A stretch of DNA of 64,000 nucleotides from a bacterium (lineage in GTDB: Bacteria > UBA10199 > 2-02-FULL-50-16 > JAJFLM01). Below the pieces are notes generated by a model, which saw only the letters and a list, made by a program, of their open reading frames with translations, was not told the DNA's origin and did not search any database. This document shows positions 13,752 to 56,058 of the stretch, piece after piece. The stretch's first letter is position 1; each line of letters starts with the position of its first letter. The stretch spans positions 32,001-96,000 of the forward strand of contig CBDCFN010000015.1 in NCBI GenBank assembly GCA_965216315.1. The letters are read 5' to 3'. The translations under genes were made by a program, and so were the position numbers.

Positions 13752-16013
13752 TCACCCACTATTTTTGGACTTGTACTCGTCGATCAAGAGACGCAGTTTG
13801 CCGGCAAGATCATCGATTCTCCAAGGCTTGACTAGAAATCCCGTCTGCTTATCCTCGGCCAAGGTAAAGTTGGAATCACCTGTCTGAAGAATCACGGGCA
13901 GGGTGGGGTGCATTTCTCGAAGAGTCCTGATTAAGGCATCACCACTCAGACGTGGCATCGTCCGATCCGTAATGACAGCAGCTAAATCCTGTCCCCGCTG
14001 CTCAATGATTTCAAGTGCTTCCTGCCCATCTTTTGCAAGCAGCACTTCGGTATATTTATACTCTTTTAAGGCCATTTCTATGCCCATCCGATTAATCGCA
14101 TCATCATCGACAACCAGCACGCTTTCCTTTCCCGGACTATCGAATACAAACGAAGCCTCTCCCATTATCGGTAAATAGATATCAAAACGGACCCCGCGGT
14201 CCGGTAGATTATGAGCCTCAACGAAACCATTGCGATCTGCAACTATTTGAGCAACCGTATGCAAACCGACTCCCCGCCCGACTTTCCCTTTCTTGGTCGA
14301 GTTATTTTTTTCAAAAATACTGTGGAGCATATGGTCAGGTATATGCGGTCCGTTGTTGGCAATACTCAAGCGCATGTAAGGTCCCGGTTTCACGGTATGC
14401 GGTAAATAACGGCCTTGACGCAATTGTCTCGTTGTCAACCAAACGTTATTCGTTTGAACATTAATGGTGCGGTCAGCAAGAGACATTTCCGCCATCGCCT
14501 CGACCGCATTGTTTAATAGAACACTGATAATTTGCGTGATGGGAAAGCGGGGCCCCTCCACCGACAAACGTGCCGCCGCAAAGCGCACTTTCAATTGTGC
14601 TTCGCGACCAAACAGCATGCTTAAGCGTCTGGGATTAAAGAGCGGATAGGGATCAATCGGCCCCCGCACGACTGTATCCGAGGCCCCCCTAAAATAATTG
14701 ATCGCCTCTTTCATTTCGTCCATGATTTCCATGACGAGTTCGATTGCACTGCGCGACTTTCCATAGAGACTATTGCCTCGCAACATGAGGCCCAAATAGC
14801 CCATCACTCCGGTTAGTTGATTGTTCAAATCATGGGCAATTCCACCCGCCAGCCGCCGTCGCACGGCATCTTCAGTCCTTTGCACCCGTTGCGCGGTTAA
14901 TTCATAGACAACAATTGCATACGTTTTACCGTTAATGGTACTGGCGCGGGCACTAATATCAATATGCGTTTCTGTTCCATCGGCCCGTTTCATCGGTGCA
15001 TCGAGCCATTCCAACTCGCCGGTATTCAAAAATAACTTAATATGTTGCTGCAATTCATGGTGATGCTTCTCATCGATGACATCAAGCACGCCTATCTCGC
15101 GCATACCATCGCCATCTGTAGGATAGCCCAGCATCTTGGCAAAAGCGGAACTACTTAGCACTCGCTCGGTACTTCCGTCTTTGTGCACCTCGATAACACT
15201 CAACGGAATACCTGAAATTCTAAACATCGTCTCAAGATCTTGAGTCAGTTGTTGCGCTAAAACCCGCTGGGTCACGTTAATTAATTCATAGTAAATGTAG
15301 GGACTTCTCTCTATCCTGCCAACTTCAACATCGACCCACATGTAATACTCATGTCCGTATTTAATCTTGACCGGAGCACTTTCATTTACTTTGAGACGAA
15401 CTCCTTTGAGAAAACCTTTTCCTGTCGAAACAACGCTCTGAATCAATTCACCGAATTTCAGCACATCGTCGGGATGATAGTTGTCCGCAAAATTTATTGT
15501 CAGGAGATGCGTCCGTGAAAAACCGGACACAGTTTCATTCGCCGTATTTAATAAGAGAAGGTTCAAACCTCCTCCGTCCATCTTAATAATACCAGCCGGA
15601 TTCGTGAAAGATTCAATCATGCCATTATAATGAACGAGTGCCGGATCTTCGCCGACCAAAGACAAACCGGCCGGCAGATAGTCAGGCGATAGCGGAGATA
15701 ATTGTCGCTCGGCCCAAGTTAACTTCTGGTTCAATATCGGATCAAGATCTGGCTTGATGCTGCGAAGTTCATGAATGCAATCCAGTAATGCTCGAGATAC
15801 TTCAATACGTTCTACGGACTCGGCATGTGAGCGGACTTGAAGGGCTTGGATGGGGGCAATGATGCGTTGGAGTTCAAGGCTCTCTATTTGGGTAAGGCGG
15901 GGAGCCATAAAATCGGCCAGCACATGCTGCGGCGCGACATTCGCCTGAAGACCCGCCGTAGACGATACGACTGTCCCGACCAATTGTGAAAACTGCAACG
16001 CGTAAGTCACCAT
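13752..16013 (-). CDS. Hybrid sensor kinase (PAS-PAS-HisKA-HATPase-REC) with N-terminal extension
   Basis: LAGGIAHDLNNQL H-box; NNAVEAM N-box; GRGVGL G2 box; VLVVDDD...ITDRTMP...KP receiver. Confidence 0.88.
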   Translation of the reverse strand: MVTYALQFSQLVGTVVSSTAGLQANVAPQHVLADFMAPRLTQIESLELQRIIAPIQALQVRSHAESVERIEVSRALLDCIHELRSIKPDLDPILNQKLTWAERQLSPLSPDYLPAGLSLVGEDPALVHYNGMIESFTNPAGIIKMDGGGLNLLLLNTANETVSGFSRTHLLTINFADNYHPDDVLKFGELIQSVVSTGKGFLKGVRLKVNESAPVKIKYGHEYYMWVDVEVGRIERSPYIYYELINVTQRVLAQQLTQDLETMFRISGIPLSVIEVHKDGSTERVLSSSAFAKMLGYPTDGDGMREIGVLDVIDEKHHHELQQHIKLFLNTGELEWLDAPMKRADGTETHIDISARASTINGKTYAIVVYELTAQRVQRTEDAVRRRLAGGIAHDLNNQLTGVMGYLGLMLRGNSLYGKSRSAIELVMEIMDEMKEAINYFRGASDTVVRGPIDPYPLFNPRRLSMLFGREAQLKVRFAAARLSVEGPRFPITQIISVLLNNAVEAMAEMSLADRTINVQTNNVWLTTRQLRQGRYLPHTVKPGPYMRLSIANNGPHIPDHMLHSIFEKNNSTKKGKVGRGVGLHTVAQIVADRNGFVEAHNLPDRGVRFDIYLPIMGEASFVFDSPGKESVLVVDDDAINRMGIEMALKEYKYTEVLLAKDGQEALEIIEQRGQDLAAVITDRTMPRLSGDALIRTLREMHPTLPVILQTGDSNFTLAEDKQTGFLVKPWRIDDLAGKLRLLIDEYKSKNSG

Positions 16014-16035
16014 ACCAGTAGCCCTGTGATGGGGT

Positions 16036-16062
16036 TCATCGCCACTTAGCGCGTAATGTTGT
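16036..16062 (-). promoter_or_regulatory. Sigma-28-like motif ACAAC-N16-CGATGA
   Basis: 22 nt upstream of the kinase ATG (16013). Confidence 0.7.
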
Positions 16063-16076
16063 GTAAAAAAGGTGGG

Positions 16077-16886
16077 TTATCCGGCGTAAGCCTGGCGAAG
16101 AATCATCATCAAGCGCAGATGCTGGGCTATTTCCCTTCCAAGAATGGGCTTCATCACCCTCCAGGTCTGATGATCTTCCGGAACAATATTTTCTTCCCGG
16201 CCAGTAATAACCAGGATAGGGAGATCCGGGCGCCGTTGGCGAAGCTCCCTGACTAATTCATCGCCACTCATAAGTGGCATATTGAAGTCGGTAATAATGG
16301 CCGTTAAGCGATCTAAGTTTGATTCGGCCAACTGTAATCCTTCTTGACCATTCGACGCTGTCATAATTTCCTCAAACTTAAAGGGACTCATGCCTCGGAT
16401 AATAGCCCGATGAAGTATGGCCATGTCATCGACATACATGAGAACTTCGCCACCGGGACTCTGCGGATCGACAACCTTGACGACGGATTCCGCTAAGTGG
16501 CTTGTCATCTTGAAGTGAATCCCGGCATCCCATAAGAGTCGAATCGATTCTTTGATGGCCGTCGCCCCCGCCTCACCGTAGTCTTCCGCAAAAGATGATC
16601 CTTGAAAGACAGTAAGAACACTGCACAGCACGTTGATAACCGACGACTCGATAGCCAGCTTCGCTTCCAACAACCGAACCTGGGCTACTGGCTTAGCAAA
16701 AAGTTGAAGCAGGGACCCGACATCATTGCGAAGTGGCTCCTCCAGTTGAGACAACCCTAGAGCCGATTGAAATTGATGCACGGCCGGAGCGATATTCTTC
16801 TGAGAGATTGGTGGTACTTGCAAGGCGGCCGCAGCCGTATTGAGGCCGAGGGCGACCTGTTGAAAAAGCGTAGCATTGACCGTCAT
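16077..16886 (-). CDS. Receiver-domain protein with helical N-terminal extension
   Basis: YVDD...ITDFNMPLMSG...ITG...KP. Start reassigned to ATG 16886, because the longer ORF overlaps tadA. Confidence 0.8.
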   Translation of the reverse strand: MTVNATLFQQVALGLNTAAAALQVPPISQKNIAPAVHQFQSALGLSQLEEPLRNDVGSLLQLFAKPVAQVRLLEAKLAIESSVINVLCSVLTVFQGSSFAEDYGEAGATAIKESIRLLWDAGIHFKMTSHLAESVVKVVDPQSPGGEVLMYVDDMAILHRAIIRGMSPFKFEEIMTASNGQEGLQLAESNLDRLTAIITDFNMPLMSGDELVRELRQRRPDLPILVITGREENIVPEDHQTWRVMKPILGREIAQHLRLMMILRQAYAG

Positions 16887-16894
16887 GCCCTCCC

Positions 16895-54943: not shown

Positions 54944-55005
54944 CCTCCCCCATCTCACTCGCGTTGCTCGTTAGGTCGCTTATGCTCCCCACAATGTGTT
55001 TCCCT

Positions 55006-55038
55006 CCCTTTGTAAAGGGAGGCTAGGAGGGATTTAAT
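55006..55038 (-). repeat. 33-bp dispersed repeat, copy 2
   Basis: Exact reverse complement of 25190-25222. Confidence 0.85.
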
Positions 55039-55044
55039 TGCCAA

Positions 55045-55071
55045 GCAACTTTGGTGCTCTTTGATCGAAGA
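55045..55071 (+). promoter_or_regulatory. Sigma-28-like motif GCAAC-N16-CGAAGA
   Basis: 6 nt upstream of ATG 55078. Confidence 0.7.
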
Positions 55072-55077
55072 GAAGTC

Positions 55078-56058
55078 ATGAATATCGCCGCCCTGCAGCA
55101 CATGGCCCGTATGTTTACCGGTGTCATTTTGCCCGGCCATACCCTTGGCGCCATTCAACAGCACAATGACATGCATCGGAGGACCCTGGGGATGGCGCTC
55201 CATGCCGGTCTGCAACCGACTCAGGCTCATCTGATTACGGTGAGCATACCGAATGACGTCGGGGTCGGTTTTCTGTTTCAAGAGGCCACTGACGGACTCA
55301 ATCAGGCCCAGTTGCTCTTGATCGGCCGCAGCCACCAACCCGAAGCCCTGCGCTTTCAGAATCCCATCCCCCAGGAACTCCATCGCATTTCTCTCATGTC
55401 CTACTTATCCGGACAAGATGAAGCACCACCCATTCATCAATATGCTGCGCTCGCTCATCTAACTCCAATGCTGCAGGCCGCTATCGGCGAAGCCGACATC
55501 GAGGCATTGCAAGCACAACTTTTTGATTATGCCCTGATGCCGAAACGTCCGCTCGGCGTCGTGCCTAGTATTGAGATGACACCAGGGCCTGCGTTGGAAA
55601 TCTTTGATACGCTGATCGACCATATTCAATTTCATGAGCAAAAAGGACTGAACACCCGGATCCGTCATGCCCTCACCGCACAGGGCATTCATTTTGTCGG
55701 TCAATTGGTGCGTCTGTCACCTTCCGCCTTGCCTGGAGGACAACAAACACGGCAAGCAATCTTGAATTATCTTCAGGCTCACGACTTGAGCCTCGGCATG
55801 GACAACCGGAACTGGCAAAAGCCGGGCCGCCACCACCGTGGCTTGATGCAAACACCGCTTACGTCTCTTTCGTTCACTTACGTAGGAGGGATGAATCAAG
55901 CGTTGCAACGACATCTCGTTAATGCCGGCGCAGTTACATTGGAAGATGTCCTGCACCTCAAGAAAACGGATCTCCTCAATAGGCCCTACTTTAATATTGG
56001 GCATTATGACACGATCCGAAATTTCCTGCGCTCACTCGGACTTGACTTTGACAAGTAG
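55078..56058 (+). CDS. Protein with two C-terminal RNA polymerase alpha-CTD-like domains
   Basis: LNTRIRHAL...GI..VGQLV...LSLGM and PL.SL...AG..TLEDVL.L...DLL....F....IR.FL..LGL both resemble the alpha-CTD pattern. Confidence 0.68.
   Translation: MNIAALQHMARMFTGVILPGHTLGAIQQHNDMHRRTLGMALHAGLQPTQAHLITVSIPNDVGVGFLFQEATDGLNQAQLLLIGRSHQPEALRFQNPIPQELHRISLMSYLSGQDEAPPIHQYAALAHLTPMLQAAIGEADIEALQAQLFDYALMPKRPLGVVPSIEMTPGPALEIFDTLIDHIQFHEQKGLNTRIRHALTAQGIHFVGQLVRLSPSALPGGQQTRQAILNYLQAHDLSLGMDNRNWQKPGRHHRGLMQTPLTSLSFTYVGGMNQALQRHLVNAGAVTLEDVLHLKKTDLLNRPYFNIGHYDTIRNFLRSLGLDFDK

Follow-up and report, generated by a model that had tools for sequence, protein, structure and literature searches.

Sigma-controlled effector regulons whose products follow N-terminal rules are known already, at least from what is reported of HrpL in Pseudomonas syringae, where the sigma factor acts on 'hrp box' promoters that have been used to mine type III secretion system (T3SS) effectors (PMC3879358). 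In Bdellovibrio bacteriovorus, the motif TTAAG-N16-CCGATA was mapped on 92 of 140 attack-phase promoters, and the sigma factor FliA is described as controlling about two thirds of the attack-phase promoters, far beyond flagella (PMC3627812). The T3SS* of Myxococcus xanthus, with the 'Myxo' non-flagellar T3SS (NF-T3SS) group, is reported to consist of a type III sorting platform and export apparatus without secretin, needle and translocon (PMC10849154, PMC12075869, PMC3459982); it is implicated in the lysis of bacterial prey, with effectors that these accounts treat as still hypothetical (PMC10849154, PMC12075869, PMC12428579). The Chlamydiae are described as possessing a flagellum-less T3SS encoded in scattered loci (PMC3459982) and as using alternative sigma factors (sigma-28, sigma-54) for late genes and effectors (PMC7482065). 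Here we analyze a stretch of 64,000 nucleotides, in the following the window (positions 32,001 to 96,000 of contig CBDCFN010000015.1, assembly GCA_965216315.1), from a bacterium of the GTDB lineage UBA10199, in which a group of genes encodes proteins whose first residues are devoid of charge. We propose that these N-termini may constitute an export tag for a needle-less type III apparatus resembling the Myxococcus T3SS*, a reading to which we give about an even chance of being correct; it is put forward because of a promoter link, the elimination of other machines, the composition of the N-termini and an effector-like gene set.

An earlier, sequence-only reading of the window had drawn attention to the charge-free N-termini, and all those quoted there were recovered at the starts it had proposed. 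The observation is real and much larger than first noted. We compiled 2412 non-overlapping open reading frames (ORFs) of at least 100 residues from the 2.96-Mb genome (98.3% complete) and speak of a tag wherever at least 17 N-terminal residues contain no Asp, Glu, Lys or Arg (D/E/K/R). Such runs are found in 221 of the 2412 ORFs, 27 of which resemble membrane helices and 194 of which do not; the latter, carrying a non-hydrophobic tag, represent about 8% of the proteome. A promoter motif, described below, lies 4–11 nt before the ATG of 60 ORFs. When these are compared with all others, as the sequence-only reading had suggested, charge-free runs of at least 17 residues occur in 48 of 60 (median run length 26) versus 173 of 2352 ORFs (median 3), with a Fisher odds ratio of 50 (p = 5.5e-41; Mann-Whitney p = 3e-27). 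Run lengths in the 60 promoter-ATG ORFs are bimodal: 12 ORFs have runs of 11 residues or fewer, and 48 have runs of 17–44. The depletion of charge is confined to the N-terminus, since the D/E/K/R fraction of the promoter-ATG ORFs is 0.043 versus 0.204 in the others for residues 2–25 and equalizes after residue 40 (0.232 versus 0.237). Within residues 2–25, tagged proteins are rich in Ser (14.7 versus 7.0% in others), Ala (15.5 versus 8.9%), Leu (16.5 versus 11.7%) and Thr (8.2 versus 5.7%), and the content of Asp plus Glu is 0.6% versus 9.4%. The promoter-negative ORF set is also rich in the same N-termini.

Many tags contain a short core of the form [LV]-L-A-[SA]-[SG] (LLASS, VLASG, LLAAS and similar) that mostly starts at residues 12–20. 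The core is 5-fold enriched at positions 10–19 (2.65 versus 0.49 per 1000 positions) and is present in 21 of the 49 members of the N16 promoter set. Its Leu, Ala and Ser residues are encoded by varied synonymous codons, which marks the core as a feature of the peptide. A profile hidden Markov model (HMM) of the tag with 59 anchored seeds as input proved weak (59 matches of at least 5 bits versus 1 in reversed proteins, only 8 of at least 12 bits), and the tag was measured by run length and regular expression in place of the HMM. Overall, the N-termini have the traits of T3SS signals: they are placed early, abound in Ser/Thr and small residues, contain few acidic ones and are too weakly hydrophobic for Sec. 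Three rules for T3SS signals of P. syringae are all satisfied by 94 of 194 tagged ORFs versus 148 of 2179 others.

Aligned on the ATG, the upstream regions of eight window genes share the motif (G)CAAC(T)-N16-(C)CGA(T/A)(A/G)(A/G). Judged by its elements, this motif is a sigma-28-like promoter, GCAAC-N16-CCGATAA. The -10 element is of the sigma-28 type (GCCGATAA-like, at a constant distance from the -35 element), and the sigma-28 -35 element TAAA or TTAAG is absent from these promoters, the -35 element here being (G)CAAC(T). The pattern CAAC-N16-CGATAR occurs 118 times in the genome versus 6 times for a reversed control; in a genome-wide scan of spacer lengths, a mild excess is seen for N17 and N18 (34 and 39 matches versus 11) and other spacings remain at background, the non-N16 spacings yielding 13–39 matches. 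A promoter is found within 200 nt of 79 of the 194 tagged ORFs versus 61 of 2191 others. In flagellar systems, sigma-28 drives late exported substrates.

In the 60 promoter-ATG ORFs the -10 element ends 4–11 nt before the ATG and leaves no room for a Shine-Dalgarno (SD) sequence, and many of these mRNAs are therefore probably leaderless, as the promoter geometry implies. By distance, the 79 tagged ORFs divide into 48 leaderless cases, 26 with the promoter at 12–60 nt and 5 with the promoter further away. Such an arrangement could by itself create the appearance of a tag, either because wrong starts were called and the segments belong to untranslated leaders, or because leaderless translation demands purine-poor, unstructured 5' codons that exclude D/E/K/R: codons for charged residues have A or G in second place and would be depleted from a pyrimidine-rich 5' end, and 48 tagged genes are predicted to be leaderless. 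However, the tag is found equally on genes with leaders and SD-like sequences (an SD-like 4-mer precedes 69 of the 146 non-leaderless tagged genes) and on the second gene of an operon. The promoter link also holds when leaderless cases are excluded (31 of 146 tagged versus 46 of 2176 other ORFs), which together with the SD-like 4-mers argues that the tag is not a by-product of leaderless translation. The varied codons of the core and the alignment of orthologues as protein from Met1 likewise speak against a nucleotide effect, and genes with leaderless-type promoters in two relatives (G023 and G003) are not charge-free, so the architecture alone does not yield the tag. We consider an artefact or nucleotide constraint largely excluded, with a very small chance left to it.

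A dispersed palindromic intergenic repeat (AAATCCCTCC-TAG-CCTCCCTTT-ACAAAGGGAGG-like) is present at 25190–25230 and 54990–55040 of the window and in 26 copies genome-wide, which occur in either orientation. Many copies are located immediately upstream of sigma-28-like promoters, as with the genes starting at 25289 and 55078, and the repeat looks like a repetitive extragenic palindromic (REP)-type element or a terminator/insulator.

The starts of the window genes are supported by the promoter abutting the ATG, by a GGAG before 26716 and by a tRNA inside the longer frame at 22941. More precisely, CAAC-N16-CGA[TAG][AG][AG] ends 6–10 nt before the respective ATG in eight window genes and 22 nt before the ATG at 16013; the ATG at 26716 follows directly after the stop of the gene starting at 25289; and a longer ORF upstream of 22941 (from 22809) overlaps tRNA-Ser (22795–22882). 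Three tagged genes encode signaling proteins. A hybrid histidine kinase-receiver of 753 residues (13752–16013, minus strand; Pfam PAS/HisKA/HATPase_c/Response_reg) has a charge-free run of 33 residues (15915–16013) and a promoter at 16036–16061. A receiver-domain protein (16077–16886, minus strand; 269 residues from the ATG at 16886) has a run of 29 residues and a promoter at 16895–16920, 8 nt before the ATG, and an FHA-domain protein (19037–19888, plus strand; 283 residues) likewise has a run of 29 residues, with the promoter at 19004–19029, 7 nt before the ATG. Four genes encode orphan proteins with tags: 22941–23855 (plus strand; 304 residues, tag residues 1–30 including VLASG; promoter 22908–22933, 7 nt before the ATG), 25289–26713 (plus strand; 474 residues, tag residues 1–27 including LLAAS; promoter 25257–25282, 6 nt before the ATG), 31470–32732 (minus strand; 420 residues from the ATG at 32732, tag residues 1–24 including VLAGA; promoter 32740–32765, 7 nt before the ATG) and 33735–35051 (plus strand; 438 residues, tag residues 1–38; promoter 33699–33724, 10 nt before the ATG). 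The last of these has one tagged paralogue within the same genome. The gene at 26716–27657 (plus strand; 313 residues, tag residues 1–35 including VLAAG) is the second gene of the operon headed by 25289 and has no promoter of its own.

The graded cases recognized by the sequence-only reading also stand. A patatin-like phospholipase (40917–42053, minus strand; 378 residues) has a shorter version of the tag with 17 residues and a promoter at 42061–42086, 7 nt before the ATG. An orphan protein of 326 residues (55078–56058, plus strand) has a leaderless-type promoter at 55046–55071, 6 nt before the ATG, and a single Arg at position 11 that limits the charge-free run to 10 residues. The gene at 23958–24452 (plus strand) is an exception outside the tagged set: it starts behind an SD-like sequence, is charged from position 3 (MGEGARIEG...) and has no strict promoter match. 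That the segments precede domains of a cytoplasmic type holds for the kinase, the receiver and the FHA protein, all recognized by Pfam; the methyltransferases that had also been named come down to a weak, methyltransferase-like language-model lead for the gene at 26716. Together with the patatin-like lipase, the hybrid kinase, the receiver protein and the FHA protein are the Pfam-named members of the window set, and the remaining six named window genes have no Pfam family at E <= 0.001. Directly after the tagged gene 33735–35051 lies a gene for a DUF4423/TIGR02147 helix-turn-helix regulator (35211–36053). An ORF of 249 residues at 44799–45548 has a weak Arf/small-GTPase Pfam match (E = 5e-5) and could encode an MglA-like or eukaryote-like GTPase.

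The claim that the tags lack the basic n-region of Sec and lipoprotein signals was borne out: Lys and Arg together make up 0.8% of residues 2–25. The most hydrophobic 10-residue stretch (Kyte-Doolittle) has a median of 1.64 in the tags versus 2.77 in 13 lipobox-type signals of the same genome. The tags thus have neither the Sec/lipoprotein signature of basic n-region, hydrophobic h-region and lipobox Cys nor the motif S/T-R-R-x-F-L-K of twin-arginine translocation (Tat), as they contain no Arg by definition. A lipoprotein signal with Ser replacing the Cys was ruled out by the missing n-region and the low hydrophobicity.

The tags might nevertheless serve another export route, namely one of the TatC paralogues through an unusual Tat-type signal that lacks arginine, Sec/YidC through a charge-free signal with subsequent passage through the type II secretion system (T2SS), or a machine not yet described. 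The genome encodes two TatC proteins (contig C16:846102 and contig C15:390206 of G000, the genome under study) and one complete-looking T2SS with a 988-residue secretin; the weak hydrophobicity and the small-residue end of the tags (LASS/LASG) recall the h- and c-regions of Tat signals, and Tat moves folded enzymes. Against this, not only the twin arginine but any basic residue is missing from the tags, and their hydrophobicity is far below that of the lipoprotein-type signals of the genome. Kinases, cyclases and helicases would find no nucleotide substrates in the periplasm, and the sigma-28-like promoter link points to the type III cluster described below. One tagged protein (G000 C16:1318283–1319518) has a canonical TRRxF-type Tat motif, TRRYFIG with a hydrophobic stretch, directly after its LLASSG tag, which would make the tag an additional element; the arrangement may represent either two stacked targeting signals or alternative starts. 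Taken together, we hold a route of this kind to be improbable.

A search for export machinery, also proposed by the sequence-only reading, revealed a type III apparatus in the 98.3%-complete genome, and no flagellum genes were found. The genome has one FHIPEP gene, which scores as SctV (TIGR01399, 806 bits at a cut-off of 692) and falls below the cut-off of the FlhA model. A cluster at 339–372 kb of contig C16 comprises genes for an SctD-like protein with FHA, PEGA and TPR domains, SctJ, a FliG_C-like protein, SctL, SctN and SctO, as well as for FliK/SctP-like, FliM-like and FliN-like proteins, FliO, SctR, SctS and SctT; unknown ORFs of the cluster have no NCBIfam or Pfam name. SctU is encoded away from the cluster and retains the NPTH motif. 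Flagellin and the rod/hook N-terminal domain have no match in the genome, and flagellar export was ruled out as no flagellin or rod was found. The needle family PF09392 reaches E = 0.14 at best in the genome, although divergent needle proteins could escape such a search.

Neither the type VI secretion system protein VipB nor the type IV secretion system protein VirB4 has a match in the genome. The only T2SSE-family ATPase above cut-off lies inside the T2SS cluster and belongs to the T2SS, and Tad or type IV pilus systems have no match. Secretin matches are limited to two, GspD of the T2SS cluster (988 residues) and an orphan protein of 253 residues. In this genome census, no other machine that takes non-Sec N-terminal signals was found. 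The closest SctV proteins among the best 80 named loci listed belong to metagenome-assembled genomes of Myxococcota (52–53% identity). A FastTree phylogeny of 80 SctV/FlhA sequences places this SctV in the non-flagellar clade (support 98), within a three-way fork of this SctV, one Myxococcota group, and the injectisomes of Chlamydiota/Pseudomonadota; the protein is not clearly inside the Myxococcota group. We note that the type III cluster and sctU are flanked by FHA-domain proteins, a PEGA Ser/Thr kinase, an FHA-GGDEF protein and a sigma-54 activator with an FHA domain (G000 C16:341219–346869, 372422–376496 and 802072–804885), and that a PP2C phosphatase is also encoded in these surroundings.

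A tie between motif-controlled proteins and type III export is suggested by a sigma factor gene and by promoter look-alikes inside the cluster. The gene encodes a 299-residue protein of the sigma-70 family whose best NCBIfam match is TIGR02479 (FliA/WhiG; 133 bits, E = 1.3e-38). Its place in the cluster is conserved: 38 of 40 relatives encode it on one contig with SctN, at a distance of about 2–4 kb. Six promoter look-alikes are found in the 32-kb region, two each with N16, N17 and N18 spacing, and what they precede are unknown, substrate-like ORFs of small or large size instead of the core apparatus genes. Among these ORFs is one directly after sctT that encodes a tagged 717-residue protein and has a leaderless-type promoter; it is the first in a series of unknown genes that extends to two small TPR proteins of the kind that chaperones translocators.

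The relatives considered here are 40 sampled genomes of the same class. An orthologous SctV is present in all 40 (68–91% identity), as is the sigma factor, and SctN is found in 39. The promoter-plus-ATG pattern is class-wide as well, with 1–46 matches per genome versus 0–3 for the reversed control. In a 392-kb sample of G002, a member of the same family in another genus, runs of at least 17 residues occur in 26 of 324 ORFs, 22 of which are not transmembrane-like. A promoter is near 9 of these 22 versus 7 of 298 other ORFs, 5 of 7 leaderless ORFs are tagged, and cores of the LLAAG/ILAAS type recur. In two pairs of orthologues from G000 and G002, the leaderless promoter is retained and the proteins can be aligned from Met1 onward, with length changes that stay in frame; the G002 orthologue of the patatin-like phospholipase at 42053 is leaderless too, with a start 4 residues shorter. 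Homologues of the protein at 25289 are found in 2 of 40 relatives, one of which (G010) keeps the leaderless promoter and the uncharged start, and the protein at 33735 has no homologue in the 12 nearest relatives; these homologues are too few for an alignment-based test of the N-terminus.

The tag does not extend over the class: a class-wide tag was ruled out by G023, in whose first 400 kb runs of at least 17 residues occur in 8 of 269 ORFs and none of 9 promoter-proximal ORFs is charge-free. The promoter-proximal frames of G030 are Ser/Pro-rich but contain Arg. By these comparisons the stereotyped tag is a family-level elaboration on a class-wide sigma factor and apparatus, which hints at a receptor or processing factor specific to the lineage. 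Within the first 400 kb of G023, only SctV, FHA352, TPR413, the SctD-like protein and a homologue of the enhancer-binding protein match the cluster region, and the rest of the cluster is located on another contig. Five relatives (G014, G022, G029, G031 and G032) encode a second, more distant FHIPEP protein (37–40% identity) and a second SctN/FliI-like ATPase (49–52%); some members of the class may have a flagellum or a second type III system as well.

To characterize the tagged proteins, we scanned 89 of the 185 candidates that remain besides the ten window genes (at most 1300 residues, in the 20 best-covering 20-kb stretches) against Pfam. No family at E <= 1e-5 was found for 65 of the 89. 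The named proteins include five LamG paralogues, two Ser/Thr kinases, a histidine kinase-receiver hybrid, GGDEF, RelA/SpoT and diacylglycerol-kinase-like proteins, an acyltransferase, a glycosyltransferase, two helicases (one with sigma-70 region 4), HEAT and TPR proteins, a phosphofructokinase, a class-V aminotransferase and a cysteine dioxygenase-like protein. Seven tagged candidates exceed 1400 residues, and giant proteins of 2000–3850 residues are among the tagged. The five LamG (Laminin_G_3) paralogues are arranged in tandem (G000 C16:444170–456124) and all start with an uncharged tag; by the start calls made here, a lipobox Cys is missing in four of the five. The orphan status and fast turnover of the tagged set would fit effectors. 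Since nucleotide-dependent enzymes need a cytoplasm, those that are tagged would have their site of action in the producer cell or else in a target cell.

The last point defines the main rival of the export reading. The tag could work inside the producer, as a stage-specific degron, as a localization or assembly tag (pole, sorting platform) or as a Ser/Thr-rich regulatory tail of a sigma-28-like life-stage regulon, without any export. Many tagged proteins are ordinary cytoplasmic enzymes (histidine kinase-response regulators, receivers, FHA, GGDEF, Ser/Thr kinases, RelA/SpoT, phosphofructokinase, aminotransferase, helicases), the attack-phase control by FliA that is described for Bdellovibrio reaches far beyond flagella (PMC3627812), and the FHA proteins, kinases and PP2C phosphatase around the cluster would suit an intracellular role. 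An apparatus without an outer-membrane part, and a tag that is family-specific in its extreme form where the apparatus is class-wide, would also be accounted for. On the other side, the 65 orphans among the 89 scanned proteins, and the few or no homologues of the two proteins tested, give a profile typical of exported effectors, not of core regulators; LamG-type and giant proteins, which are usually extracellular, are tagged too. We know of no degron or localization tag of 25–40 uncharged residues on 8% of a proteome. An intracellular tag appears unlikely to us, more so than export through the type III apparatus, though less so than the other alternatives.

Several observations weigh against the export reading. 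The type III cluster lacks a dedicated secretin and a recognizable needle, which leaves the outer-membrane route unexplained. The cluster sigma factor scores 133 bits where the FliA/WhiG cut-off is 189.6 bits; the six look-alike sites in 32 kb compare with about 2 expected from the genome-wide density, a modest excess, and only 2 of the 6 have the canonical N16 spacing. No strict promoter lies within 200 nt of 115 of the 194 tagged ORFs, and three tagged ORFs (amidase, RtcB, ChlI-like) are likely to be housekeeping genes counted falsely. Observations of the extreme tag are confined to the same family, with the apparatus, the sigma factor and the leaderless promoter pattern being class-wide: beyond the figures already given for G023, charge-free runs of at least 17 residues occur in none of 6 promoter-proximal open frames in G003, in 2 of 12 in G030 and in 1 of 12 in G023. 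Finally, the FliK/SctP-like ruler homologue, the only substrate-type protein recognizable by its family, has a charged N-terminus. Early type III substrates use other signals in known systems, and the charged start of this protein neither fits nor excludes the export-tag model.

With these points in mind, export through the type III apparatus remains our preferred explanation. The charge-free, Ser/Ala/Leu/Thr-rich first 17–45 residues would act as an N-terminal export tag, often with a core around residues 13–20, and would direct the proteins into the only machine of the genome that takes non-Sec, N-terminal signals, the flagellum-less type III apparatus. The tagged genes, at least in part, would form the regulon of the FliA/WhiG-like sigma factor encoded in the cluster, which would read the GCAAC-N16-CCGATAA promoters; for about 60 genes the promoter is so near the ATG that transcripts are predicted to start at the ATG itself. 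The apparatus would recognize the tag, and the cargo may act in another cell, as the ATP-, GTP- and S-adenosylmethionine-dependent domains suggest. As to the nature of that cell, the bacterial-type signaling domains and the Myxococcus precedent fit bacterial prey by analogy, and HEAT, kinase and lipid-kinase domains would equally fit a eukaryotic host. In its most extended form, which we regard as speculative and rather doubtful, the cluster sigma factor would switch on about 190 genes, many of them leaderless, and the machine would use the uncharged, core-bearing tag to deliver bacterial-type signaling enzymes (histidine kinases, receivers, GGDEF, RelA/SpoT, Ser/Thr kinases and phospholipases) into bacterial prey or hosts.

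Signals for type III export are notorious for lacking a consensus, and effectors are hard to discover for this reason. In the present genome, about 8% of the proteome bears a tag with a recognizable core, and about 40% of the tagged genes have a dedicated promoter type nearby. Should the link to the apparatus be true, the tagged genes could be mined directly as a list of cargo. The most extended form of the reading, if correct, would amount to the first signal and cargo list to be defined for any T3SS*-type system, and to the first case in which type III delivery into bacteria relies on a consensus tag. A coupling between a sigma-28-type promoter and leaderless mRNA, as predicted here, is unusual; the same holds for a FliA-like sigma factor that 38 of 40 relatives conserve within a type III cluster of the non-flagellar kind. 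Both features bear on the evolution of injectisomes from flagella. The combination of a FliA-like sigma factor in a non-flagellar, needle-less cluster, predicted leaderless mRNAs and an uncharged, core-bearing tag on about 8% of the proteome looks new; it was not found in the full-text literature searched, which does not cover subscription journals.

Compared with the known systems, the locus shares with the HrpL regulon the association of an alternative sigma factor with a type III cluster, an N16-spaced promoter before many scattered genes, and Ser-rich, acid-poor N-termini, a combination that permits genome-wide effector mining. It differs in that the sigma factor is FliA/WhiG-like and not of the extracytoplasmic function (ECF) type, that the promoters abut the ATG of genes predicted to be leaderless, that the tag is free of both basic and acidic side chains over 17–45 residues and has the [LV]LA[SA][SG] core, and that the apparatus is without recognizable secretin and needle. 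The Chlamydiae are similar in their flagellum-less T3SS and their alternative sigma factors, the counterpart here including the sigma-54 activator with an FHA domain that flanks the cluster; they differ in having a secretin and a needle and in targeting eukaryotic cells. Long N-termini without charge and rich in Ser/Thr/Pro are a feature of the type III effectors of Chlamydiae (Inc proteins, Tarp), among which we know of no conserved [LV]LA[SA][SG] core. The FliA regulon of Bdellovibrio shows the same -10 element CCGATA and the same 16-nt spacer, and a sigma-28 role that is, as described, extended to hundreds of non-flagellar genes. In contrast, its -35 element is TTAAG instead of GCAAC(T), and here no flagellum genes were found and the sigma gene resides inside a non-flagellar type III cluster; moreover, the word 'leaderless' occurs nowhere in PMC3627812, and no stereotyped N-terminal tag is described in the passages of that paper considered here.

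The closest counterpart of the apparatus is the Myxococcus T3SS*. No dedicated secretin, needle or translocon was recognized here, and FHA-domain proteins are encoded nearby in both systems; the FHA enrichment reported around Myxococcus kil clusters (PMC12428579) resembles the flanks described above. The Tad-like Kil pilus partner of the Myxococcus system was not found here, as the only T2SSE-family ATPase belongs to the T2SS, and the word 'sigma' is absent from the text of PMC12075869, whereas the cluster analyzed here contains a sigma gene. To our knowledge, the Myxococcus T3SS* is the only studied example of a secretin-less and needle-less type III system, and a candidate signal with candidate cargo in a related system would make the question of its substrates testable.

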